DNA from: an uncultured Gemmatimonadaceae bacterium
GTDB lineage: Bacteria > Gemmatimonadota > Gemmatimonadetes > Gemmatimonadales > GWC2-71-9
Direction: 5' to 3'
DNA length: 64,000 nt
Assembly (NCBI GenBank): GCA_964465315.1
Contig: CAYXIK010000008.1
Span: forward strand, 21,735 to 85,734
Shown: in pieces, positions 52,973-64,000 of the stretch
How the letters are laid out: each line of letters starts with the position of its first letter
Position numbering within the stretch: position 1 is the first letter of the stretch
The notes under the pieces: generated by a model
Told to the model about the DNA's origin: nothing
Seen by the model: the letters and a program-made list of their open reading frames with translations, nothing else
Database searches by the model: none
Program-made: the position numbers and the translations under genes

Positions 52973-54178
52973 ATGCCGGTCTTTCAGTACACCGCCCGCA
53001 CGCTCAAAGGCGATCTGGTCAACGACAAGATCGACCTGCCGACGCGGGACGACGTCATCGCGCACCTGCGCAAGAACCGCATGGTGGTGGTGCAGGTCCG
53101 GGCGGCGCCGAAGGAGTTCAAGCTCAGCCTGAAGTTCGGCGGCGGCGTCCGGACCCGCGACGTCGTCGTCTTCACGCGCCAGTTCGCCACCATGATCAAC
53201 GCCGGCTTGCCCTTGGTGCAGGCCCTCGACATCCTGGCGCAGCAGACCGAGAACAAGATCCTGGCCGACGTCACCCGCCAGGTGGTGTACGACGTGGAGA
53301 GCGGCCAGACGCTCGCCGACGCCCTCCGCAAGCACCCGAAGGCGTTCAGCGACCTGTACGTCAACATGGTCGCGGCGGGTGAAGCGGGCGGTATCCTCGA
53401 CACCATTCTCGTCCGGCTCGCCGAGTTCCTCGAGAAAAACGACGCCATCGTACGCAAGGTGAAGGGCGCGATGATCTACCCAGGCGTCATTCTCTCGGTG
53501 GCGGTCATCGCCGTATCAGTGCTGCTGATTTTCGTGATTCCGACCTTCCAGAACATGTTCGCCTCCGTCAACCTGCAGCTGCCCCTGCCGACACGGATCG
53601 TGATCGGCGCGAGCAGCGTGCTGAAGAGCTACTGGTGGGCCATCCTCGGGGTCATCGGGTTCGCCGTCTTCGGCGTCAATCGGTACTACAAGACCGCGGC
53701 GGGCCGTCTCCAGATCGACACGCTGCTGCTCAAGATGCCGGTGCTGGGCGATGTGCTTCGCAAGGCCGCCGTGTCGCGCTTCACGCGGACGCTCGGGACC
53801 CTGATCTCGTCGGGCGTGTCCATCCTCGACGGCCTGGAGATCACGGCGCGCACCGCCGGGAACATGGTGATCCACAATGCAGTGATGGAGTCCCGCGCGT
53901 CCATCGCGGGTGGCGAAACCATCTCGGCCCCGCTCGCCAAGTCCAAAGTGTTCCCGCCGATGGTGATCTCCATGATCTCCGTGGGCGAGCAGACCGGCGG
54001 TATGGACGAGATGCTGTCGAAGATCGCTGACTTCTACGACGACGAGGTGGACGCCGCCGTGAGCGCCCTGCTGTCGCTCATGGAGCCGGTCATGATCGTC
54101 GTGCTGGGCGTGATCGTCGGCGGTATGGTGGTAGCCATGTATCTGCCGATCTTCGACATGGTGAACGCGGTGCAGTAG
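52973..54178 (+). CDS. pilC: Type IV pilus platform protein (GspF family)
   Basis: FTRQFATMINAGLPL, AGEAGGILD, GAMIYP, GEQTG, MYLPIF. Confidence 0.95.
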   Translation: MPVFQYTARTLKGDLVNDKIDLPTRDDVIAHLRKNRMVVVQVRAAPKEFKLSLKFGGGVRTRDVVVFTRQFATMINAGLPLVQALDILAQQTENKILADVTRQVVYDVESGQTLADALRKHPKAFSDLYVNMVAAGEAGGILDTILVRLAEFLEKNDAIVRKVKGAMIYPGVILSVAVIAVSVLLIFVIPTFQNMFASVNLQLPLPTRIVIGASSVLKSYWWAILGVIGFAVFGVNRYYKTAAGRLQIDTLLLKMPVLGDVLRKAAVSRFTRTLGTLISSGVSILDGLEITARTAGNMVIHNAVMESRASIAGGETISAPLAKSKVFPPMVISMISVGEQTGGMDEMLSKIADFYDDEVDAAVSALLSLMEPVMIVVLGVIVGGMVVAMYLPIFDMVNAVQ

Positions 54179-54236: not shown

Positions 54237-57200
54237 TCAGGGTCCCGTGTGAGGTGGGGCCCCACGACCGCTTTCGTCGATCGCCGAGATGACGTCCTTG
54301 AGGGGGGTCTTGCGGAGCTCGACGCCGAACGCCGGTAGCGCGCGCTCGATCACGTCGCCGAACCGGCGGGCGGCGTCGGTGAGCCGTTGGGCGAACAAGT
54401 CGTGCACGGCGATCTGCTGCGCGGTGGGCGCGAAATCGGCTCCGTTCTCGGAGACGTCCGACTGCAGCGCTGCGAGCCTGCCGTAGAGCTGCATCGGCGA
54501 GCGGAACGCATCCTCCCGCGCGCCCGTCAAGTGCACGTCGAAAAGGACACCCTCCACACCGAGGGCGCGCGCGTCGAGCGAGTCGGCCAGCGCGGCGATG
54601 CGCTTGGCGTTCGAGTCCCCAACCACCGCGGAGTCGCCGCGCAGCTGCCCGACGAGGTCACGCAGCTGCTTCCGGACCCATTCGAGCCGGTTGATCATCC
54701 GGGCGACACTGTCCTGCTCGCCCCGGATCGCCAGCGCCAGCCGCGTTTGCGCCTGCACATCGCTGTCCGTCCCCGTTGTATTGGGGTCCTTGAGGACCGT
54801 GAGAGGTTGCGTAAGCGTGACCGCGGAGTTCGCCCGGCTCCCCGTGTCGGCGACCGTCAGGCGCACGGTGTAGGTGCCGGGAGGCGCGAGCGGACCCCGG
54901 AGCGACAGGTCCAGGTCCCAGGTCACGAGCGGACGCGTACCGTCGGACCCGACCCGGACGAACGCCTTGCCCGGCGGCGGGGTCCGAAGCTTGGGCACCG
55001 TGGGGGACGCGTAGCGCAGGTCCCACCACACCCGGTTCAAGCCTGGCCGCCGCTCTCCCTCGAGCGTGCGCACGGTATCCCCCGTCGGGCCGAGGATGAC
55101 GATTCTGGCCGGCTTCAGCCGGTGCGCGGTGTCGGGCGGCGTGCTCGTATCCGCCACCGACGGTGACACGTAGTACGTCAGGTCCGCGCCGTACGGAACC
55201 GTGTCGGGCTCCACCGCGCTGTTCGGCGCGCTCGCGACGCCCTGTTGTGGCCGGTACCGGTACGCCTGGCGGGGCGTGAAGAGGAAGGCCTTCGCGGCCA
55301 GTGTCACGGGCTCGAGCTGCTCGAGCGGCGATATGTCCTCCAGGATCCACGCGCCCCGTCCATAGGTGGCGACCACGAGGTCGCGGGCGTGGGGCTGCAC
55401 CGTCAGCCAGGAGACCGGCGCGTGGGGTAGGTTGGTCTGCAACGGCAGCCAATGCGCGCCATCGTCGATCGTCACGTATACGCCGCTTTCGGTACCCGCG
55501 TAGAGCATGCCGGCTCGGCTCGGATCCTCGCGGACCACGTGTACGAACCCGAGGGGAGAGCGGGGCAGGGCATCCGAGATTCGCTTCCAGGTCTTGCCGA
55601 AGTCGGTCGTCTTGTAGATGTACGGGTCGAGGTCGTCGAGCTCGTGCAGGTCCGCCGAGAGGTACGCGGTTCCCGGGTTGAAGCGCGACGGCTCGATGTT
55701 CGAGATCTTGGCCCACGGCGCGAGCTTGGGGATGCCCGCAGTGACGTTCACCCATGTACCGCCGCCGTCACGGGTGACGTGCACGAGGCCGTCGTTCGAG
55801 CCCGCCCAGATCACGCCCGATTGCACCGGAGACTCGGCCAGGGCGAACAGCGTGGCCCCGTCGAAGGTCATGAGGTTGTCGGTCGTGACGCCGCCCGAGC
55901 TCTGCTGGTGCGTGGTGTCGTTCCGCGTGAGGTCCGGGCTGATCACCTTCCAGCTCGCCCCGCCGTCGGTCGTTACATGCACGTACTGGCTGCCGACGTA
56001 CACGCGGGCGTGGTCGTGCGGCGAGATGGCGATCGGGAACGTCCAGTTCCAGCGGTACTTCAGATCGGCCGGCCGCCAGCCGTACGCGGCCTCCGGCCAA
56101 ACGCGCACGTTCCGGGCGTGGTCCGTTCGCACGTCGTACACCTCGAGGCCTCCGTCGTAGCAACCCGACCAGACCGTCGTGTTGGTGACCGTGTCGGGGA
56201 TGCCGAAGCCGCTCTCGCAGCCGCCCACGTGCCCCCATTGGCCCTCCGATGCCCCGCCCGACAAGCTCCGGCTCGGCATGCGGTACGACGTACCGTCCTG
56301 CCGGTTGCCGTACAAGTTGTAGGGGACGCGAGTGTCGGTATGCACGTGGTACAGCTGGGCGATGGGCAGCACGACCCGCGTGAACGTCTTGCCCCGATTG
56401 AGCGTGATGCTCGCGCCCCCATCGTGCGCGATCATGAAGCGGTCGGGGTTCAGCGGGTCGATCCAGACGTCGTGATTGTCACCGCCACCGTGGAAATCCG
56501 ACCGACCGAGCGAGCGGCCGCCATCCCGGGAAATGCTGAAGCGGACGGAGACGAAGTACAGGCGGTCCTCGTCGTCCGGCGCCACGGCGAAGCGGACGTA
56601 GTACGGCGCGCGCTCGGCCATGTTGTGATCCCGGCTCACGAGGCGCCACGTGACGCCCCGATCGTCGCTCCTGTAGAGCGCCGGATCCTGATCCTCGATC
56701 AGCGCGTACACGGTATTCGGGTTCGAGACGGCGACCGCGACGGCGATCTTGCCCACCGTGTGCTGCGCGTCGGGCAGTCCGCGTCCGGCGAGGCGCGTCC
56801 AGGTCACGCCGCCGTCGCGCGAGACCCAGAGGCCGCTGCCCGGTCCGCCGCTCTGGAGATGCCACGTCTTGACCTCGAACTGCCACATCCCCGCAAAGAC
56901 GGTGTTGGGATCGCCCGGATCCATGGCGAGGTCGGAGCACCCGGTGTTGGGATCCACGAACAGCACCCGCGCCCAGGTCTTCCCGCCGTCTGCCGTGCGG
57001 TACACCCCGCGATCCTGGGCCGGACCGTAGGCCCGCCCCAGGGCGCACACGAGCACCACCTCGGGGTTCGTCGGGTCGATCACGATGCGCGCGATTCGAC
57101 CCGTGGCGTCGAGCCCCATGTGGCGCCAACTGCGGCCGCCGTCCGTCGATCGGTAGACGCCGTTGCCGAGCGCCGTCGTCGACCGGATGAAGAACGTTTC

Positions 57201-57515
57201 GCCGGTGCCCGCCCACAGCACGTTGCGCGCCGAGGGCGCGATAGCGAGGGCGCCGATCGCCTGCGCCGGCGCGCTGTCGAACACCGCCCGCCAGTGTACC
57301 CCGCCGTCTTCCGTCTTCCAGATTCCGCCGGACGCGGCGCCAACGTAGGCCACCAGAGAATTGCCGGGCTCCCCCACGACGGCGATCGCGCGGTTCCCTT
57401 CGGGGCCGACGAAGCGGTAGCGGAGACGCGTCCACAGCGTGGTGTCAAGCTGTTGGGCGCCGAGGCCGGCGGCGAGCAGCGCGTGCATCGCGAAGACGAT
57501 ATGAAACCGGATCAT
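54237..57515 (-). CDS. Large exported BNR/Asp-box (VPS10-like) beta-propeller glycosyl hydrolase
   Basis: Signal peptide; many S/TxDGGxxW Asp-boxes (TEDGGVHW, STDGGRSW, SRDGGVTW, TTDFGKTW). Confidence 0.88.
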   Translation of the reverse strand: MIRFHIVFAMHALLAAGLGAQQLDTTLWTRLRYRFVGPEGNRAIAVVGEPGNSLVAYVGAASGGIWKTEDGGVHWRAVFDSAPAQAIGALAIAPSARNVLWAGTGETFFIRSTTALGNGVYRSTDGGRSWRHMGLDATGRIARIVIDPTNPEVVLVCALGRAYGPAQDRGVYRTADGGKTWARVLFVDPNTGCSDLAMDPGDPNTVFAGMWQFEVKTWHLQSGGPGSGLWVSRDGGVTWTRLAGRGLPDAQHTVGKIAVAVAVSNPNTVYALIEDQDPALYRSDDRGVTWRLVSRDHNMAERAPYYVRFAVAPDDEDRLYFVSVRFSISRDGGRSLGRSDFHGGGDNHDVWIDPLNPDRFMIAHDGGASITLNRGKTFTRVVLPIAQLYHVHTDTRVPYNLYGNRQDGTSYRMPSRSLSGGASEGQWGHVGGCESGFGIPDTVTNTTVWSGCYDGGLEVYDVRTDHARNVRVWPEAAYGWRPADLKYRWNWTFPIAISPHDHARVYVGSQYVHVTTDGGASWKVISPDLTRNDTTHQQSSGGVTTDNLMTFDGATLFALAESPVQSGVIWAGSNDGLVHVTRDGGGTWVNVTAGIPKLAPWAKISNIEPSRFNPGTAYLSADLHELDDLDPYIYKTTDFGKTWKRISDALPRSPLGFVHVVREDPSRAGMLYAGTESGVYVTIDDGAHWLPLQTNLPHAPVSWLTVQPHARDLVVATYGRGAWILEDISPLEQLEPVTLAAKAFLFTPRQAYRYRPQQGVASAPNSAVEPDTVPYGADLTYYVSPSVADTSTPPDTAHRLKPARIVILGPTGDTVRTLEGERRPGLNRVWWDLRYASPTVPKLRTPPPGKAFVRVGSDGTRPLVTWDLDLSLRGPLAPPGTYTVRLTVADTGSRANSAVTLTQPLTVLKDPNTTGTDSDVQAQTRLALAIRGEQDSVARMINRLEWVRKQLRDLVGQLRGDSAVVGDSNAKRIAALADSLDARALGVEGVLFDVHLTGAREDAFRSPMQLYGRLAALQSDVSENGADFAPTAQQIAVHDLFAQRLTDAARRFGDVIERALPAFGVELRKTPLKDVISAIDESGRGAPPHTGP

Positions 57516-57624
57516 GAGTGACTGCGCCTGGGCGGAAGGTCGGCTAAGAATGGCGGCCGGCTCGCCCACGCGCGAGAGGCGGCCAGGGGTGGCTGGGACG
57601 CGGGCGGCCAGTACATTCGGGCGG

Positions 57625-58300
57625 ATGAGCGTTTCCGACCATCGGGAGCCGACACCGGCCCGCACCGGCACTCTGCGCCACGACGCTCCGCCCATGCGCC
57701 TGTACCATGAGGCCAAGACGTTCGGCGCGTGGGACCCACGGAGTCTGGATCTGCGGCGCCCTGGCGGAAGAGGGGCACCACACCGAGTTCTTCCGACGCG
57801 TGCTAGACGAAGTGTGCCACCAATCCGGCGACCTCCAACGCTACCAGACACCGAGCTTCCGCCGGTTGTTTGCCGAGCACGTACCAGCGGCCATGCACCT
57901 GCTGCTCACCGATCCCTCCCCCGTCGCTCAGGGCGAGGCGCTCGTCGCGTACAGCCTGGTCGGCGAGGGTGTCCTCGGCGACGCAGGCTATCATTTGTTC
58001 GAGACCGCGTTCGCGGGCGGCCAATTGATGCCAGGGTTCCGCGATGGCCTCGCGCGCTCTCAGGCCGATGAGGCCCGACACGTGGCGTACGGCCTGTTCC
58101 TGCTGTCCCGCCTCGTGGCCGCTGATCCCCACGTGTGGATCGCGGTAAGCCGGCGCATGGAGGAGCCGCTGCCGCCCACGCTTGACGTGATCGCCGCGCT
58201 CCGGGCGCACCACGTTCCCGAGCGGCTCCGCACGGGCGGCAAGATGCGGCTGACGTTTCTGGCCACGCGCGGCAAGATCATCGTGCAGCCGTCGGAATGA
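57625..58300 (+). pseudogene. R2-like ligand-binding oxidase (R2lox) with an internal deletion and frameshift near 57755-57765
   Basis: One frame gives PPMRLYHEAKTFGAWDPRSLDL (R2lox N-terminus); another frame resumes at EEGHHTEFFRR...VGEGVLGDAGY...DEARH; about 60-70 codons are missing between them. Confidence 0.78.
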
Positions 58301-58314
58301 CGGCAGGTGGCGAC

Positions 58315-58932
58315 CTAGGGGACGGAGGGCGCGGGCGGCGGCTGGTTGGGATCCGCGCCCGCCAGATTCGGAAGCTCGAGCCACTGCCGCGGAAAGCGCG
58401 GTAGGAACTTCACGTGGCGGTTCACCACCGCCTGCACGCGTCGCCACCAGCATACGATCGGGCCGCGGGTGTGGCCCACGCTGACCACCGCGAAGGGAAT
58501 CGAGTCCGCCACCACGGTGCGCAGGTCGGGCTGGCTGAGCGAGCACAGGTCCTCCGGCGTCTTCACACCGAAGCTCGAGTCCGGTCCCGCCCAGACGTGG
58601 TTGTGCCAGACCGCTAGCGTCCCGGGCGCGCACGGCAGTGGCTCGACGTGATCCGCCGCGGAGCTCACCACGTCAGGCATCACGAACTCGCGCACCAGCG
58701 CCGTATCACCAGCTGTCGTCCCGTGGAGGCATAGCACCACTTCGCGATCGAGGCCCGCTGCGAGCAGGCTGATCCGGCGGAGCAGCGAGGGGGCGATAAC
58801 CAGGCGCTTGAGGGGTTGGGACGCGAGGATCGCCGAGTCGGCCGGGGTGAGGGCGGCCTGAGCCGCCGCGATGCTCGGCAGCAGCAGCGCTACGACCATC
58901 TGCCAGACCGAGACCCGAGGCGCGAGCGGCAT
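58315..58932 (-). CDS. Exported protein with a JAB/MPN+ (JAMM)-like motif
   Basis: Signal peptide; LVIAPSLLRRI...REVVLCLHG; LAVWHNH; SLSQPD. Confidence 0.62.
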   Translation of the reverse strand: MPLAPRVSVWQMVVALLLPSIAAAQAALTPADSAILASQPLKRLVIAPSLLRRISLLAAGLDREVVLCLHGTTAGDTALVREFVMPDVVSSAADHVEPLPCAPGTLAVWHNHVWAGPDSSFGVKTPEDLCSLSQPDLRTVVADSIPFAVVSVGHTRGPIVCWWRRVQAVVNRHVKFLPRFPRQWLELPNLAGADPNQPPPAPSVP

Positions 58933-59117
58933 ATCGTAGGATAGCGAACTCCGAGCGGTGCCGCGCTCTTGCACTTTGCCACATCAATCCCAATACTTAC
59001 GCCCGGCGCCCGCGGTCACGAGATCCCGAGTACGAATCAATAAGTCGTTGCTAATATTACCCTTATGAAGCTGGGCCTGCCCGCTTCCCGGCGGGGCCCG
59101 CTTGCAAGGAGAGCGGT

Positions 59118-60779
59118 GTGAGCTGGCTCGGGGGCGGCTCGCGGGGATCGGCGATCCCAACTCCACAGAGTCTGTTGCGGTCGGTGTACGCCGGGCGGCT
59201 GTGTGTGGCCACCGCGATCTACCTGGCTGCGACGTTCAAGTTCTCGGTCGTGGCGCCCCTCGACCTGCTCGTCACGTCGTTCCTGCTCGTGACCGCGGTG
59301 CTCGTCACGATCGCCTCCTACTGGCACACGCACATTCGGAATCGCTCTCCCGGCCGGACGTTCCTGTACGGGCAAGCGCTGTTCGACGTCGCGCTCATTA
59401 CTGCCGTCGTGCACATCACCGGCGGTCCGCAGAGCGACCTGACTCCGCTGTACGTCCCCCTCATCGCCGTCACTGCCGTGCTGATGCCGCCGGCAAGCAC
59501 GGGGCTCATCACGGCGCTCGTCGGGCTGGTCTACTTCGCCGACGTGCTCTTTGGGCACCGGACGCCAATGACGGCGCAGATCGCGCTCCAGCTGCTCGTG
59601 TTCGTGGCGGTGGCGGCGGTGACGGCGTACTTCGCGAGCCGCGTCTCCGTGATGGGGGCGGAGCGGGAGGCGCTGGCGGGCGAGCTCCGGCAGGCGCGGC
59701 TCGAGGCCTCCGACGTGCTGCGCAACATCCCGACGGGCGTCGTCACGGTGGACCAGAGCGGCCACCTCTTGTACTGCAACCCCGCCGCGGAGCAGATCCT
59801 CGGCTTCAAGGAGCGTGGCTGGCGAGGCCGACCTATCATGCCGGAGTTCGCGCGGATCGCGCCCGAGTTCTGGGCCGCCATCACGGCGACCGCCAGGCGA
59901 GGCGTGCGGGCGATGCGGGTCGAAGCGACGGTACGCCGCCCGGATCGGACGTTCACGATCGGCGTCACCACGACCACGCTCGAGGTCGAGCCGGATGGCG
60001 AGCCGAGAGTGACGGCGATCTTCACCGACATCTCGGACTCGAAGCGGCTCGAAGAGCTGCACTTGCGCGCCGAGCGGCTCGAGGCGGTGGCCGAGCTCTC
60101 GTCGAGCCTGGCCCACGAAATCAAGAACCCGCTCGCCTCCATCCGCTCGTCGGTGGAGCAGTTGGGGCGCGCCAAACGGGTCAACGCCGACGAGAAGTTC
60201 CTCACGTCGCTCATCGTGCGCGAGAGCGATCGCCTGTCGCGGCTGTTGTCGGAGTTTCTCGACTTCTCACGCGTGCGCGCCACCGAGTGCCGGCCGCTCG
60301 ACCTGCGGGACGTGGCCGCCGCCGCTATCCGCTTGGTGCGCGAGCATCCCGACTGCCCGGACGACGCGGTCATCGATCTCCGGGGGGACGCCGCGCCCAT
60401 GGAAGGAGACGAGGACCTGCTCCATCGCGTCGTCTCGAACCTCGTGCTCAACGCCGTCCAGGCCACGGGGAAGGGGGCGCGCGTCGAAGTCACGGTCGGT
60501 CGGCCCGCGTCCCAGGAGCTGCCCGGCGGCGCCGGGATCGAAAACCCTGTGTCGCTCGCGGTGAGCGACAACGGGCCGGGCATTCCCGAGGGCCTGCGGG
60601 CGCGCCTGTTCGAGCCGTTCGTGACGGGGCGGGTCGGCGGCACCGGGCTCGGCCTCGCGATCGTGCAGCGCGCGGTGGACGCGCACCGCGGGTTGGTCCT
60701 CGTCGATTCCACTCCGGGGAAGGGAACGACCTTCACCGTGTACCTCCCAGCCGCCCGAAGGAAAGAGGAAGCCGCATGA
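59118..60779 (+). CDS. pilS: PilS-like membrane sensor histidine kinase with PAS domain
   Basis: About 6 TMs, PAS (NIPTGVVTVD...CNPAAEQILG), LAHEIKNPL, GTGLGL. Confidence 0.8.
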   Translation: MSWLGGGSRGSAIPTPQSLLRSVYAGRLCVATAIYLAATFKFSVVAPLDLLVTSFLLVTAVLVTIASYWHTHIRNRSPGRTFLYGQALFDVALITAVVHITGGPQSDLTPLYVPLIAVTAVLMPPASTGLITALVGLVYFADVLFGHRTPMTAQIALQLLVFVAVAAVTAYFASRVSVMGAEREALAGELRQARLEASDVLRNIPTGVVTVDQSGHLLYCNPAAEQILGFKERGWRGRPIMPEFARIAPEFWAAITATARRGVRAMRVEATVRRPDRTFTIGVTTTTLEVEPDGEPRVTAIFTDISDSKRLEELHLRAERLEAVAELSSSLAHEIKNPLASIRSSVEQLGRAKRVNADEKFLTSLIVRESDRLSRLLSEFLDFSRVRATECRPLDLRDVAAAAIRLVREHPDCPDDAVIDLRGDAAPMEGDEDLLHRVVSNLVLNAVQATGKGARVEVTVGRPASQELPGGAGIENPVSLAVSDNGPGIPEGLRARLFEPFVTGRVGGTGLGLAIVQRAVDAHRGLVLVDSTPGKGTTFTVYLPAARRKEEAA

Positions 60780-62149
60780 GCCAGCAGCCTTCGATTCTGG
60801 TCGTCGACGACGAGATGGGGATCCTCGACGTGCTGCGGATCCTCCTCAAGGGCGAAGGATTCGAAGTCACCACCGCGCAGGGGGGGAAAGCCGGGCTCGA
60901 GGCCTTGAAGGGCAGCCCGCCCGACATCGTCCTCACCGACATCAAGATGCCGGGCGTGTCGGGGACGGAGATCCTCGCGGCCGTCCGCGAGCAGGATCCC
61001 GAGACGCCGGTGATCCTCATGACTGCTCAAGCCTCGCTCCAAAGCGCGATTCAGGCGGTGAACCAGGGTGCCTTCTACTACATCCAGAAGCCGTTCTCGA
61101 ACGACGACCTGGTGGCCATCTGCCGCCGCGCCGCCGAGCAGCGACTGCTGAAGGCCGAGAACAAGCAGTTGAAACAGGAGATCCGCCGCCGCGAGCGCTC
61201 CGGTCTCGTCAAGCCTCTGGGGAAGTCGCGGACGTTCCTCGAAGTCCTGAAGCTCGCCGAGCAGGTGGCCCCGACCGAGAGCACGGTGCTCATCCAGGGA
61301 GAATCGGGCACCGGGAAGGAGGTGATCGCGCGCTACATCCACGAGCTCTCGGCGCGATCGGACGGCGGGTTCTTCTCGCTCAACTGCGGCGCGCTGCCGG
61401 AGAGCCTGCTCGAGTCGGAGCTGTTCGGGCACGTCAAGGGATCGTTCACCGGCGCGGTGCGCGACAAGCAGGGCCTGTTCGCTGCCGCGCGGGGCGGCAC
61501 GTTCTTCCTCGATGAGATCGGCGAGATGTCGGCCGCGACGCAAGTGAAGCTGCTGCGCGTCCTGCAGGAGCGCGAAGCGATCCCCGTCGGCGGCACCGAG
61601 GCCATTCCGGTGGACGTCCGCGTCGTGGCCGCCACGAACCGGGATCTCGAGGACGACATCAAGCGCGGCCGCTTCCGGACCGATCTGTACTACCGGCTCA
61701 ACGTGATCGCCATCCATCTCCCCCCGTTGCGGGACCGGCGGGACGACATCCAGATCCTCTGGGAGGAGTTCCTCGGCCGCATCGCCAAGGAGCGCGGCGA
61801 GCCGCCCAAGACCCTCACCGAAGGGGCGAAGGGCTCGCTCCTCGCCTACGACTGGCCCGGCAACGTCCGCGAGCTCGAAAACGCGCTCGAGCGCGCCGTG
61901 GTGCTCTCGAAGAGCACCAGCATCGATCTCTCGGCCCTGCCGGACAAGCTGACCGAGCCGCGCGCCGAGCCGCTCGTGGCCGAGCGGGCCCATCCCAACC
62001 CCACGCTCGACGTCATCGAGCGCGCCTACATCACGTGGGTGTTGCAGACCGAGGGCGGCAACAAGACCCGGGCGGCCGAAGTGCTCGGGATCGACCCTTC
62101 CACCCTGTATCGCAAGCTGAGCCGATACGAGGGCGATGCGACCGGCTGA
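60776..62149 (+). CDS. pilR: PilR-like sigma54-dependent response regulator (REC-AAA+-HTH)
   Basis: [41 protein letters not shown], Fis-type HTH. Confidence 0.85.
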
Positions 62150-62861
62150 CGCGGCCCCGCCCCCCGTCGATCAGGTCGGGGCCGCGACGCTCGAGCGCAT
62201 GGCCGCGGCCCCCCGGTACAACCGATGGATGTTCGAGCGCCTGCGCCCCTGGGTGGGGCGCCGCGTGCTCGAGGTCGGCGCCGGGATCGGCAACATGTCC
62301 GCGTTCCTCGTCGATCGGGAGCGGCTCGTGCTGGCCGACACGGAGCCACACTACCTGGCCCGGCTGCGCGAGCGCTTCGACGATCGGCCGAACGTGCGCG
62401 TGGTAGAGCTCCGCCTACCGGCGTTCGATCCCCAGCTCGTCGCGGAGCGGATGGACACCGTCATTTGCCTCAACGTGCTCGAGCACATCGAGGACGACCG
62501 CGCGTCGCTCTTCGCCATGCGCCAGCTGCTCGATCCCGGCGGGCGGCTCGTGCTCCTCGTGCCCGCCCTGCGGCCTCTGTACGGCACTCTGGACCAGGCG
62601 CTCGGTCACTTTCGCCGGTATGTCCCCACCGAGCTTAGGAGCATGGTCGAGGAGTCGGGTTTTCGCGTCCGTCATCTCGAGTACTTCAATCTGGCGGGCG
62701 TGCCCGGGTGGTGGCTCGCGAGCCGCGTCCTTCGACGGCGCCTCATTCCGACCGGGGCGCTCCGCTGGTACGAGGCGCTGGTGCCACTGTTTCGATTGGA
62801 GCGATGGCTGCCGCGGCGTGTGGGACAGTCGCTGATCGCGATCGGCCAGGTGCCCGCGTGA
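62136..62861 (+). CDS. Class I SAM-dependent methyltransferase
   Basis: VLEVGAGIG, NVLEHIEDD, LDPGGRL. Confidence 0.88.
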   Translation: MRPADAAPPPVDQVGAATLERMAAAPRYNRWMFERLRPWVGRRVLEVGAGIGNMSAFLVDRERLVLADTEPHYLARLRERFDDRPNVRVVELRLPAFDPQLVAERMDTVICLNVLEHIEDDRASLFAMRQLLDPGGRLVLLVPALRPLYGTLDQALGHFRRYVPTELRSMVEESGFRVRHLEYFNLAGVPGWWLASRVLRRRLIPTGALRWYEALVPLFRLERWLPRRVGQSLIAIGQVPA

Positions 62862-63592
62862 CGTCCCCATCGCTACGGCCCGCGGACGACCTTTTGCTCT
62901 CCGTAATCATCCCGGCGTACAACGAGGCGGGGACCATTGAGGCGGTGCTGCGGCGCCTGCGGCAGGTGCCGCTTCGGCTCGAGGTGGTCGCGGTGGACGA
63001 CGCCTCGACCGACGGAACGGGCGCTCTCCTCGACCGGCTCGCGAGCGACGGGCTCGCGCAACTGGTCATCCACCACCGCGCGAACCGCGGGAAGGGCGCC
63101 GCGCTGCGCAGTGGCATTGCGGCGGCCACCGGGCACGTGATCGTCCCCCAGGACGCTGATCTCGAGTACGACCCCATGGACCTGCCCCGCTTGCTGGGAC
63201 CGATCGCGGAGGGTCGGGCCGATGCCGTGTACGGCTCTCGCTTTCAAGGCGGGCCGCATCGCGTGCTCTTTTTTTGGCACGCGGTCGGCAACAATCTGCT
63301 CACGCTCGTCTCCAACATGTTCACGAACCTGAACCTCACGGACATGGAGACGTGCTACAAGTTGGTCCGGGCGGACGTGATGAAGCGGCTCTCGCTGACG
63401 GCCGAGCGGTTCGGGATCGAAGTCGAGCTGACGGCACGGCTGGCGCAGGCGGGCGCGCGCATCTGGGAGCTGCCGATCTCCTACAGCGGCCGGACCTACG
63501 CCGAGGGAAAAAAGATCACGTGGCGGGACGGGCTGGCAGCGCTGTTTCACATCCTGCGCTATAACGTGTTGCCATCTCGGCGCAAGGCGTGA
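62858..63592 (+). CDS. GT2 glycosyltransferase, DPM1-like (polyprenol-phosphate sugar synthase type)
   Basis: IIPAYNE, VDDASTD, NRGKGAA, QDADLEYDP, YGSRF, DMETCYK, FGIEVELT. Confidence 0.9.
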   Translation: MTSPSLRPADDLLLSVIIPAYNEAGTIEAVLRRLRQVPLRLEVVAVDDASTDGTGALLDRLASDGLAQLVIHHRANRGKGAALRSGIAAATGHVIVPQDADLEYDPMDLPRLLGPIAEGRADAVYGSRFQGGPHRVLFFWHAVGNNLLTLVSNMFTNLNLTDMETCYKLVRADVMKRLSLTAERFGIEVELTARLAQAGARIWELPISYSGRTYAEGKKITWRDGLAALFHILRYNVLPSRRKA

Positions 63593-64000
63593 GCGCCAGG
63601 CGCCTCTACGCCGCGGTGGCCGCCGGCGCCCTGGTCTTCTACTTCGGAGCGCTGGGGAATCGCTTCGCGCTCGACGACAACCACATCATCGCGTTCAACG
63701 CCCTGGTGCATCACATCGGTGGCATGTGGCGCACGTTCGCGGCGCCCTACTGGCCGCCCGAGGTAGGCGGCGGGCTCTACCGACCCTTACCGATCGCGTC
63801 CTACACCCTCGACTGGTCGCTCAGCGGCGGCGCGCCTTGGTGGTTCCATCTCGTGAATCTTGCCTGGCACGCCGGCGCGAGCGTCGCTGTGGCGTTCTTG
63901 GCGAGGCACTTGAGTGGCGACCGCGCCGCGTGGACCGCCGGCCTGCTCTTCGCGGTCCATCCGGTCCACGTCGAAGCCGTCGCCAACATCGTCGGACGGG
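63589..64000 (+). CDS. TMTC-like GT-C glycosyltransferase, partial (runs off window; not in ORF track)
   Basis: Manual translation from GTG 63589: MSARRLYAAVAAGALVFYFGALGNRFALDDNHII...LYRPLPIASY...FHLVNLAWH...LLFAVHPVHVEAVANIVGR; contains the DD, YRP, H.VN...H and F.VHP.H.EAV motifs. Confidence 0.82.
   Translation, partial: MSARRLYAAVAAGALVFYFGALGNRFALDDNHIIAFNALVHHIGGMWRTFAAPYWPPEVGGGLYRPLPIASYTLDWSLSGGAPWWFHLVNLAWHAGASVAVAFLARHLSGDRAAWTAGLLFAVHPVHVEAVANIVGR

Follow-up and report, generated by a model that had tools for sequence, protein, structure and literature searches.

A short reading frame beside type IV pilus regulatory genes raises the question of whether a JAMM/MPN+-like enzyme can work outside the cytoplasm, and on what. 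JAMM/MPN+ proteins are textbook intracellular isopeptidases of the proteasome lid, the COP9 signalosome, ESCRT, sulfur-carrier maturation and CBASS. The frame lies in a 64,000-nucleotide stretch of DNA (the window) from an uncultured Gemmatimonadaceae bacterium, a member of the Gemmatimonadota, an abundant and poorly studied soil phylum. An earlier interpretation, made from the letters of the window (the sequence-only reading), had proposed an extracytoplasmic JAB (iso)peptidase. The fold, the conservation of the motif and the signal-peptide-like N-termini support this proposal, with catalysis predicted. With a probability of about 0.7, we favour a Sec-exported, disulfide-stabilised zinc hydrolase of the JAB1/MPN class acting on an amide or isopeptide bond of the cell envelope; export, zinc binding, disulfides, catalysis and substrate class are all predicted properties.

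A conserved gene of a family restricted to Gemmatimonadota

58315..58932, minus strand: coding sequence of the predicted exported JAMM/MPN+-like protein, 205 residues plus stop (open reading frame list and translation)

The description of this frame in the sequence-only reading was reproduced, with an identical translation that included the motif elements, the 20-residue spacer and the four cysteines. If translation began instead at a GTG upstream, at 58974, the product would be 219 residues long; the ATG at 58932 agrees with the N-termini of most orthologues. Compared with its orthologues, the frame showed dN/dS values of 0.05-0.31, indicating purifying selection. We found 366 close homologues of the protein and about 100 distant ones at 22-45% identity. 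The frame is a real, conserved gene. Matches to its sequence were found in DNA runs only, from rock and soil metagenomes, and a search for RNA data on the gene returned none.

About 185,000 species genomes were scanned, and true family members were present in Gemmatimonadota only. Within the phylum the family is patchy, with a match in 48 of 301 genomes, and it has decayed in some of them: one genome carries an internal TAG (G142) and in another the match is split into two pieces (G023). This combination of patchy presence and decay indicates that the role of the family is dispensable. Every naming source calls its members 'hypothetical protein'. The family is thus new, unannotated and Gemmatimonadota-restricted, and its definition adds a protein family covered by no Pfam or NCBIfam model.

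The predicted structure is a JAB1/MPN fold

58363..58812, minus strand: MPN/JAB fold domain, residues ~41-190 (AlphaFold2, Foldseek and hhalign)

The AlphaFold2 model of the protein had a pLDDT of 86.2 and a pTM of 0.76. Blocks across residues 41-180 scored pLDDT 86-98, falling to 86 at the loop of residues 113-129. All of the top 50 Foldseek matches in the PDB were JAB1/MPN proteins at probability 1.00, among them CSN5, Rpn11, AMSH and archaeal JAMMs. The best E value for eukaryotic JAMM isopeptidases was 9e-6, and, with the small archaeal JAMMs 5ld9 and 6fno_B as the reference for normalisation, TM scores were 0.62-0.63. In a viral structure library (BFVD) the best matches were JAB/MPN/RadC-type proteins. 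By its model, the protein is a JAB1/MPN fold. The metalloprotease-like fold proposed in the sequence-only reading was thus borne out by AlphaFold and Foldseek, which returned JAB1/MPN matches only.

The catalytic residues are conserved around a variable loop

58741..58743, minus strand: codon of Glu64, predicted general base, in E-V-V-L-C-L-H-G (RLVIAPSLLRRISLLAAGLDREVVLCLHG), kept in 92 of 93 members
58597..58605, minus strand: codons of His110-Asn111-His112, predicted zinc ligands, in W-H-N-H (alignment and model)
58546..58596, minus strand: expanded loop, residues 113-129, between HxH and C-x-L-S-x-x-D (direct count)
58525..58545, minus strand: codons of Cys130-Ser-Leu-Ser133-Gln-Pro-Asp136 (CSLSQPD; alignment and model)

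Conservation was counted in an alignment of 93 diverse family members sharing 22-73% identity with the query. Glu64 was kept in 92 of them, His110 in 91, His112 in 93, Ser133 in 86 and Asp136 in 90, with Glu at the last position in three more. Asn111 (85/93) and Leu132 (83/93) were also widely kept. E, HxH and an acidic ligand were retained together by 91 members and the full canonical pattern including Ser133 by 81; a catalytic residue was lost in only two. The motif that the sequence-only reading had picked out (E64, WHNH and S133/D136) is therefore confirmed throughout the family, each position being kept in 86-93 of the 93 members. The predicted roles of the last two residues are oxyanion helper for Ser133 and third zinc ligand for Asp136.

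The residues around Glu64 (E-V-V-L-C-L-H-G) compare with the canonical E-x-x-G-x-L-x-G. In the model, Glu64 stands just before strand 66-74 (beta2), the HxH ends strand 107-112 (beta5), and S133 and D136 lie at the start of helix 134-143, after beta5. These are the secondary-structure elements that bear E, HxH and S/D in JAMM enzymes. Exactly 20 residues separate H112 from S133, compared with about 7 in the canonical motif. The protein departs from the canonical spacing H-x-H-x(7-10)-S-x-x-D in that an extra loop precedes the canonical C-x-L-S-x-x-D element. Across the family this spacer ranges from 7 to 38 residues (14 being commonest and 20 next), indicating that the loop is a hypervariable insertion site.

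Related loci were also sought with the degenerate DNA pattern WHNHP...CxLSxxD, which gave 76 matches. Ten of these, comprising all the matches outside Gemmatimonadota, were rejected as false by HMM.

A predicted exported sister family provides the link to known JAB proteins

C11:40175-41005 and C54:7897-8646: Prok-JAB sister family in the same genome, predicted to be exported; named 'Mov34/MPN/PAD-1 family protein' by some sources

Neither the protein nor the 93-member profile gave a usable match in Pfam, NCBIfam or PDB sequence searches, and the protein had no match to the JAB-family Pfam models PF14464, PF01398 and PF04002 even at E <= 10. Sub-threshold RadC or Prok-JAB Pfam matches were found in five of the 93 members (best E 0.005), weak RadC matches occurring in three. 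RadC and Prok-JAB were the only JAB-type families in a Pfam scan of the 93 members at E <= 0.1, in which DUF4329 (Tox-JAB-2) was absent.

The family profile detected a paralogue at C11:40319-40645 with an E of 1.2e-7. The C11 and C54 sister paralogues exceed the PF14464 cut-off of 25 bits, scoring 27.2 and 32.5 bits, respectively, and the family of the C11 paralogue passes it too. The two families were matched by hhalign at 96.7% (E 3.9e-10, 128 columns), an alignment that brings E, two cysteines, HxH and D into register. Glu64 pairs with the Glu of TEFMGCMIG in the sister family, and H110/H112 pair with its HSH. In a weak match, the sister-family Glu in turn pairs with the Glu of 'nlEvMGLMLG' in CSN5 and the HSH with the HSH of CSN5, the aligned sequence including the CSN5 stretch 'HSHPGYGCW'. 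A direct hhalign comparison of the family with a small set of canonical Prok-JAB and RadC proteins, aligned ad hoc, covered the N-terminal Glu region only, at 18% probability, and paired Glu64 with the Glu of EACGLIGG in the canonical Prok-JAB of this genome. Since the direct alignment is limited to the Glu region, we drew the superfamily link via the sister family.

Both families have a predicted signal peptide, a Cys at Glu+4, another before the HxH strand and a long Cys-bearing loop between HxH and S/D, and both come from the same phylum. They also differ. Identity over aligned columns is only about 20%, and the sister family has H-S-H-P and an S-S-D element and places the loop cysteine and the final cysteine elsewhere. 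Its genomic contexts also differ, featuring an upstream partner of about 155 residues that is predicted to be exported, and Pfam recognises it, unlike the target family. The small genes lying upstream in the sister families show no relationship to one another. The genome encodes three further JAB-like paralogues that are predicted to be exported, a pattern more in keeping with a radiation within this lineage than with an isolated case.

The N-terminus and cysteines point to the cell envelope

58855..58932, minus strand: predicted Sec signal peptide, residues 1-26 MPLAPRVSVWQMVVALLLPSIAAAQA, with cleavage between A-Q-A and A (heuristic call)

The protein starts with MPLAPRVSVWQMVVALLLPSIAAAQA, followed after the predicted cleavage point by ALTP. 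This segment combines a basic n-region with a hydrophobic core and carries a conserved A-Q-A signal-peptidase site; the stretch MVVALLLPSIAAA, given as the signal peptide in the sequence-only reading, is its hydrophobic core. In orthologues the signal region is variable in sequence and constant in hydrophobicity, and the conserved mature part begins directly after (A/G)Q(A/G). Nearly all of the 93 family members have a hydrophobic, signal-peptide-like N-terminus, with a lipobox in seven. On this heuristic call, the A-Q-A site and the family-wide hydrophobic N-termini uphold the proposed signal peptide.

The four cysteines are kept almost without exception: C68 and C101 in all 93 members, C130 in 92 and C161 in 91. 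One member lacks both C130 and C161. The total number of cysteines is even in 92 of the 93 members and is four in 76. Even numbers of invariant cysteines are typical of oxidising compartments. The family is most likely exported to the periplasm or cell envelope, and its four invariant cysteines are most likely paired as two disulfides, with C68-C101 and C130-C161 the probable pairs. In its predicted signal peptides, A-x-A site and even cysteine numbers, the family is predicted to depart from the cytoplasmic location that characterises UBL-processing JABs.

It is very improbable that the N-terminal segment stays uncleaved, leaving a membrane-anchored or cytoplasmic JAB, or that the protein is an inactive pseudo-enzyme or scaffold. 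Such a reading could draw on the heuristic nature of the signal-peptide call, on a proline (residue 19) that breaks the hydrophobic core and on the two of 93 members that have lost catalytic residues. It sits poorly with a conserved A-Q-A site followed by a conserved mature N-terminus, with hydrophobic N-termini family-wide (some bearing a lipobox) and with an even number of invariant cysteines. Retention of E, HxH and the acidic ligand in 91 members, 81 of them with Ser133 and the full pattern, argues against loss of activity. Elsewhere, the genome also encodes a JAB-ThiS-ThiF set of the canonical cytoplasmic kind.

The gene neighbours pilS in its own clade only

58933..59117: 185-bp intergenic region shared divergently with pilS
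59118-60779, plus strand: pilS-like histidine kinase (Pfam 6TM_PilS/PAS/HisKA/HATPase_c)
60776-62149, plus strand: pilR-like sigma-54 response regulator (Pfam Response_reg/Sigma54_activat/HTH_8)

The neighbours of the gene in the window are pilC, a BNR protein gene, an R2lox-like remnant, pilS and pilR, and a methyltransferase, GT2 and GT-C set lies downstream of pilR. In all orthologues of at least 69% identity (about 40 species-level genomes) the gene lies inside the pilC...pilS-pilR cluster. At every locus but one of those capturing both genes, it and pilS are divergently oriented and about 100-200 bp apart. Nothing, an R2lox-like gene, or an R2lox-like plus a BNR gene lies between it and pilC. 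This fixed adjacency to pilS in its own clade may reflect co-regulation with type IV pili.

The same arrangement could mark an accessory factor of the type IV pilus, co-regulated with pilS/pilR, that trims or de-modifies pilin, a pilus-associated protein or a pilin glycan-peptide in the periplasm. The variable gene content towards pilC and the methyltransferase and glycosyltransferase-type set after pilR, as well as the nearly constant divergence from pilS, are in its favour. We nevertheless consider it quite improbable. At 61-67% identity, orthologues are found in unrelated contexts without pil genes, as are all 18 other family groups, and the gene is on the strand opposite to all pil genes. 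Scans of the flanks for sigma-70 and sigma-54 consensus sequences and terminators found nothing, leaving the proposed co-regulation with no recognisable promoter or sigma-54 site. Synteny in a single clade can also reflect inertia rather than function. Because the linkage stops at about 69% identity, we gave it less weight as a functional clue.

No conserved partner or substrate gene is adjacent throughout the whole family; with more distant members sitting elsewhere, no universal partner indicates a substrate. The second large family group is located among housekeeping genes. In six of the 19 family groups, this lineage not being among them, a gene for a predicted exported TPR protein of about 450 residues follows directly on the same strand; its closest homologue in this genome is unlinked and 30% identical.

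We also checked for the usual partners of JAB peptidases. A search of the contig that carries the gene (C8) found no ubiquitin-like or E1 genes. The only ThiF-type E1 of the genome is at C7:35990-36697, and its four ThiS-type genes are on C3, C7, C11 and C1. The sequence-only reading had noted no ubiquitin-like, E1 or sulfur-carrier gene nearby, in agreement with these locations.

A predicted zinc hydrolase of the cell envelope

The JAMM mechanism is established for AfJAMM, AMSH-LP, Rpn11 and CSN5, and we assigned the active site from this mechanism and the conserved residues. In the preferred reading, the protein would be made with a Sec signal peptide, reach the periplasm or envelope of a diderm Gemmatimonadales bacterium and fold as a JAB1/MPN domain. 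His110, His112 and Asp136 would hold Zn2+, Glu64 would activate the zinc-bound water and Ser133 would stabilise the tetrahedral intermediate; the disulfides would hold the Glu strand and active-site loop in place. The reaction would most likely be hydrolysis of an amide or isopeptide bond on an envelope component. Candidate substrates are a peptide tail, a peptidoglycan stem-peptide or protein-peptidoglycan link, and a surface-protein modification. The gene stands alone as an accessory gene, outside any ubiquitin-like, E1 or sulfur-carrier system.

An exported JAB-fold hydrolase need not be a peptidase. It might be a nuclease, an activity proposed for RadC-type and toxin-type JABs, or cleave a non-protein amide (peptidoglycan, lipid or glycan-linked), a reading we regard as unlikely. 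The W-H-N-H-P of the protein contains the same H-N-H-P as RadC from this genome, three members have weak RadC Pfam matches, and the contig has no UBL-like substrate gene. RadC-type JABs carry H-N-H-P and their peptidase activity has been doubted, and divergent JAB clades that lack the tunnel for a UBL tail have been argued to be possible nucleases (Zhang et al. 2012, PMC3482391). By contrast, the full peptidase-type E/HxH/S/D set is conserved here together with the C-x-L-S-x-x-D element, the best fold matches are isopeptidases, and the protein has no helix-hairpin-helix (HhH) or other DNA-binding module. Nor is RadC itself known from experiment to be a nuclease.

A broader idea, speculative and rather unlikely, is that Gemmatimonadota possess an extracytoplasmic isopeptide chemistry. 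This family and at least two predicted exported sister JAB families of this genome would then serve as periplasmic 'de-conjugases', removing tags or cleaving protein-peptidoglycan or pilin isopeptides, and would here be tied to type IV pilus regulation. If true, they would be an envelope counterpart of deubiquitination. The protein is in any case a small, easily expressed target for probing amide and isopeptide turnover in the Gemmatimonadota periplasm.

Comparison with known JAMM and JAB systems

Among the closest known counterparts are the minimal prokaryotic and archaeal JAMMs, such as Pyrococcus furiosus JAMM1 (5LD9), the Caldiarchaeum subterraneum Rpn11 homologue (6FNO/6FNN), AfJAMM and the Mec+/CysO peptidase. 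Like the minimal Prok-JABs (PF14464), the protein has a single MPN domain of about 130-150 residues with E...HxH...S-x-x-D, and the minimal archaeal JAMMs are its best size-normalised fold matches (TM 0.62-0.63). Minimal Prok-JABs are cytoplasmic and encoded with UBLs of the ThiS/MoaD/SAMP type and E1s, as is the genome's own C7 copy. The target differs in its predicted signal peptide, its four invariant cysteines, its 20-residue rather than ~7-residue spacer and its H-N-H in place of H-[ST]-H; it has no UBL or E1 neighbour and falls below every Pfam threshold. The absence of UBL and E1 genes from contig C8 also separates it from the UBL-processing associations of Mec+/CysO, QbsD, SAMP/JAMM, CBASS Cap3 and Bil/Bub.

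CSN5, Rpn11, AMSH/AMSH-LP and BRCC36 (MEROPS M67) share the catalytic residue set of the target and are among its top Foldseek matches. Its C130-x-L-S133-x-x-D136 has the pattern of the C-W-L-S-x-x-D of CSN5 and Rpn11. These eukaryotic enzymes are larger, carry Ins-1 and Ins-2, and act on ubiquitin or NEDD8 in multi-subunit cytoplasmic or nuclear complexes, whereas the target is a predicted secreted, single-domain bacterial protein encoded in a UBL-free region of the genome. RadC-like JABs (PF04002) share the H-N-H-P signature and account for the weak Pfam matches in three members. They differ in having an N-terminal helix-hairpin-helix, a cytoplasmic location and, as in the genome's own RadC, a short PS-x-x-D spacing, none of which the target has. 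Phage tail-tip JABs of the lambda gpK type are also distinct, the target being a single domain with no NlpC/P60 fusion and no phage genes nearby. Full-text literature searches found no characterised periplasmic stand-alone JAB.

To our knowledge, Tox-JABs, which share the E, HxH, S and D set, are the only JAB domains previously described as leaving the producing cell. The protein might be a secreted antibacterial toxin of the same kind, paired with an immunity partner, and not an envelope enzyme with a housekeeping role. The immunity protein of Tox-JAB-1 is a lipoprotein, suggesting action in the envelope or periplasm (Zhang et al. 2012, PMC3482391), and in six other family groups the TPR gene occupies the position directly after the JAMM-like gene. 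We judge this reading extremely improbable. Tox-JABs form the C-terminal tip of a large toxin, either RHS or delivered by a T6SS or T7SS, whose immunity gene lies alongside. The target, by comparison, is a 205-residue stand-alone protein consisting of a predicted Sec signal and one domain, with no N-terminal trafficking, RHS, PAAR or LXG module, and no small partner or immunity-like gene adjoins its locus. Vertical inheritance with stable synteny in about 40 species, strong purifying selection and no sign of polymorphism also differ from a polymorphic toxin, as do the absence of DUF4329 among the 93 members at E <= 0.1 and the size (about 450 residues) of the TPR neighbour, whose nearest homologue here is unlinked and only 30% identical. 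If export is as predicted, the family shows that the MPN fold came to serve in the bacterial envelope as an enzyme in its own right, and not just as the tip of a toxin.

The gene and its conserved motif

The JAB-like gene encodes a protein of 205 residues.

58315-58932, minus strand: gene for a predicted exported JAMM/MPN-like protein (ATG start; in-frame GTG at 58974)

The translated ORF (58315-58932) bears out what a sequence-only reading had described. It has a hydrophobic N-terminus (MPLAPRVSVWQMVVALLLPSIAAAQA, followed by ALTP), a predicted catalytic Glu segment (RLVIAPSLLRRISLLAAGLDREVVLCLHG, with Glu64), WHNH (His110 and His112) and SxxD within CSLSQPD (Ser133 and Asp136). The spacer, put at about 20 residues, is exactly 20 from His112 to Ser133, and the cysteines number exactly four (C68, C101, C130 and C161). 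The codons of E64, HNH, C130-D136 and the remaining cysteines were confirmed against the raw sequence.

Across 5.8 billion proteins, 366 homologues matched at E ≤ 0.01. Of the matches listed, the best were 72-96% identical to the target, and those with names were all annotated 'hypothetical protein' in MAGs of Gemmatimonadales or Gemmatimonadetes. No Pfam domain was found on any of the close homologues listed. When 1.84 billion cluster representatives were searched exhaustively with HMMER, 152 proteins matched; full-length relatives, at 27-48% identity, make up about 100 of these. The target is a real gene under constraint, with dN/dS of 0.05-0.31 for the mature region against 13 orthologues. 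Its sequence was present only in DNA runs.

We aligned 93 family members, which share 22-73% identity with the query; identity per column averages 16%. In this homologue check, proposed earlier, E, HxH and D were conserved, with a catalytic residue missing in only two members. C68, G71, C101 and H112 were invariant, and E64, P86, W109, H110, N111, C130, S133, D136, C161 and W163 were kept in at least 90% of sequences, as were Met1 and Leu54.

Conservation of predicted catalytic residues among the 93 aligned members
E64: 92
H110: 91
H112: 93
S133: 86; the rest Gly or Thr
D136: 90, plus 3 Glu

The Glu context in the family is E-x-x-x-C-L-x-G, with the Glu-to-Gly distance of the canonical E-x-x-G-x-L-x-G. 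The spacer from HxH to Ser ranged from 7 to 38 residues (mode 14; 20 in the target). The spacer is a hypervariable loop inserted before a conserved C-x-L-S-x-x-D element. C-W-L-S-x-x-D is an element of eukaryotic CSN5 and Rpn11. The target's element (58525-58545, minus strand) follows that pattern, and the Prok-JAB and RadC copies of the same genome read P-S-x-x-D.

Predicted fold

The AlphaFold2 model, built from the family alignment, had a mean pLDDT of 86.2 and a pTM of 0.76, with 10-residue blocks at 86-98 over residues 41-180. Foldseek against the PDB gave 53 matches at E ≤ 0.001. The best 50 were all JAB1/MPN proteins, the outcome expected of an MPN fold in the structural check proposed earlier. 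Matches included CSN5, Rpn11, AMSH/AMSH-LP/Sst2, BRCC36, the Prp8 MPN domain and Citrobacter BubCD. TM-scores from Foldseek, normalised to the archaeal chain, were 0.62 for the Caldiarchaeum Rpn11 homologue (6FNO_B) and 0.63 for P. furiosus JAMM1 (5LD9). In a viral structure library the best matches were of JAB, MPN and RadC type; lower ranks were weak and mixed.

The modelled elements run beta1, alpha1, beta2, beta3, two short strands, beta5, loop, short strand, alpha2, beta6, beta7, alpha3. Glu64 lies just ahead of beta2, H110 and H112 at the end of beta5, and S133 and D136 at the start of alpha2. Glu, HxH and S/D occupy these same positions in the JAMM enzymes AfJAMM, AMSH-LP and CSN5. In the model, the motif residues are placed on the elements expected for JAMM enzymes.

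Relationship to JAB proteins and paralogues

The target had no Pfam, NCBIfam or PDB sequence match, and the family profile had no match in the PDB. Weak RadC or Prok-JAB matches occurred in 5 of the 93 members. The profile picked up two paralogues within the genome. One of these (C11:40319-40645) and a third paralogue, on contig C54, exceeded the curated Prok-JAB cut-off in a genome-wide PF14464 search. Besides the target, the genome has in all three exported JAB-like paralogues, each outside the window and each with a signal-peptide-like N-terminus and conserved cysteines, in agreement with a lineage-specific radiation:

C11:40175-41005, minus strand: paralogue passing the Prok-JAB cut-off
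C54:7897-8646, plus strand: paralogue passing the Prok-JAB cut-off
C8:13268-13840, plus strand: paralogue

The C11 paralogue and a ThiS-PALP (CysO/CysM-like) pair converge, and upstream of the paralogue is an exported 152-aa protein of no known family. The sister family to which this paralogue belongs is likewise from Gemmatimonadales. Most members carry precomputed PF14464 matches, and some sources name them 'Mov34/MPN/PAD-1 family protein' or 'JAB domain-containing protein similar to deubiquitination enzymes'. Profile-profile comparison of the target and sister families gave 96.7% probability (E 3.9e-10, 128 columns), pairing E64 with E70, C68 with C74, C101 with C110, H110/H112 with H123/H125, and D136 with D144. 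Against the PDB the sister profile gave only weak matches (E about 1), all to CSN5; these put its Glu on 'nlEvMGLMLG' and its HSH on 'HSHPGYGCW'.

The genome also encodes a canonical cytoplasmic JAB-ThiS-ThiF (Mec+/CysO/MoeB-like) cluster (C7:35990-37797) and RadC (C7:5896-6660), and thus holds classical as well as exported JAB proteins.

Predicted export and disulfides

At the N-terminus of nearly all 93 members, a basic stretch leads into a hydrophobic one; seven have a lipobox. In close orthologues the variable N-terminal region always ends in (A/G)-Q-(A/G), directly before the invariant mature start LTPxDS. All but one of the 93 members have an even number of cysteines in the mature part: 76 have four, 14 have six and 2 have eight. 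C130 and C161 are both missing in one and the same member, and the third exported paralogue retains only the C68 and C101 equivalents. These patterns argue for disulfides C68-C101 and C130-C161, which are predicted in the target.

Distribution

We ran a degenerate DNA pattern for WHNHP...CxLSxxD against one genome per species (about 185,000 species) and obtained 76 loci. HMM scoring upheld 66, all in Gemmatimonadota or unnamed MAGs. It rejected as false all of the other ten, which came from Proteobacteria, Bacteroidota, Chloroflexota, Binatia, Marinimicrobia and Archaea. The family is patchy in Gemmatimonadota, with a match in 48 of 301 genomes (strong in about 25). The 100 confirmed loci form 19 groups at 60% identity. 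One member has an internal TAG stop (L029; G142:C1:45453-45857), and the match at L031 (G023:C8:39990-40440) is split into two separate, overlapping pieces and may be a frameshift. These two cases suggest decay of the gene in some lineages, and it is probably dispensable.

Genomic neighbourhood

The target lies within a pil cluster:

52973-54178, plus strand: pilC
54237 to about 57500 (ORF 54237-57851), minus strand: BNR/sortilin-Vps10-like large exported protein; start probably near 57500 at MIRFHIVFAMHALLAAGLGAQQ
57707-58300, plus strand: R2lox-like remnant (197-aa ORF), convergent on the JAB gene
59118-60779, plus strand: pilS
60776-62149, plus strand: pilR
62136-62861, plus strand: methyltransferase
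62708-63592, plus strand: GT2 glycosyltransferase

Every orthologue of at least 69% identity (about 40 species-level genomes) sits inside the pilC...pilS-pilR cluster, divergent from pilS and about 100-200 bp from it wherever both were captured, with one locus excepted. The interval from pilC is empty or holds an R2lox-like gene, alone or with the BNR gene. The JAB gene is therefore the constant resident, and the R2lox-like and BNR genes are variable inserts. The BNR/sortilin-like gene occurs there only in a subset of related species. The R2lox-like region (57514-58300, plus strand) comprises two overlapping frames; its 197-aa ORF had no Pfam match, aligns with relatives in two separated pieces and is missing from some of the orthologous loci. 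After pilR (62136-64000, plus strand) come the methyltransferase, the GT2 and a multi-pass membrane protein with overlapping starts; in relatives, GT2 is followed by genes for a 505-aa protein and an N_methyl pilin. The genes after pilR suggest a pilin-glycosylation module under PilSR control.

Adjacency to pilS would fit a pilus-related role of the target, which we consider unlikely. This adjacency is specific to its clade; the gene is located elsewhere in orthologues of 61-67% identity and in every other group. In six of the other groups the gene immediately downstream, on the same strand, encodes an exported TPR protein (about 450 aa) that carries the conserved motif APDHPNxHDSYAE(L/I)(L/M)QW. 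It is the sole recurrent neighbour and lies at:

L011:2253-3590
L014:2268-3560
L015:1-1434
L021:2014-2802
L031:2286-3317
L037:8800-10272

It may be a partner or substrate of the family. Its gene is missing from the locus in the target's lineage, and its closest homologue in the target's genome is unlinked and only 30% identical.

Contig C8 holds no UBL, E1 or sulfur-carrier gene, extending what had been noted for the target's surroundings. The genome's sole ThiF adjoins ThiS and the canonical Prok-JAB on C7. Scans around the JAB gene found no consensus for a promoter, a sigma-54 site or a terminator.

Proposed function and comparison with known systems

The MPN fold, motif conservation and family-wide signal-peptide-like N-termini support the earlier interpretation of an extracytoplasmic JAB. 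In the best-supported reading (probability roughly 0.7), the target is a JAMM-type zinc hydrolase, exported through Sec and stabilised by disulfides. H110, H112 and D136 would bind Zn2+, E64 would activate water, S133 would support the transition state, and the expanded, Cys-pinned loop would shape a lineage-specific substrate cleft. The bond it cleaves would most naturally be an amide or isopeptide of the envelope. The H-N-H-P signature is common to the target and RadC, and would fit an exported JAB-fold hydrolase with a non-peptidase activity, which we consider unlikely.

As a JAMM-type zinc hydrolase, the target would work like the minimal prokaryotic and archaeal JAMMs, and it has the C-x-L-S-x-x-D element in common with CSN5 and Rpn11. 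It departs from known JAMM and JAB systems in its 20-residue HxH-to-Ser spacing, in falling below Pfam JAB-family thresholds, in lacking a UBL/E1 association and in its predicted export in place of a cytoplasmic location. Tox-JAB-1 and Tox-JAB-2 were described as toxin tips (Zhang et al. 2012, PMC3482391). Unlike Tox-JAB toxins, the target is without a trafficking module, immunity gene or polymorphism. In our literature searches, no stand-alone JAB of the periplasm had been characterised. The family is unannotated and restricted to one phylum, Gemmatimonadota, and the protein is easy to test. Set against the known systems, it is a predicted JAMM/MPN+ hydrolase that has a novel loop, probable disulfides and a probable new location in the envelope, an unusual combination of enzyme class and compartment.
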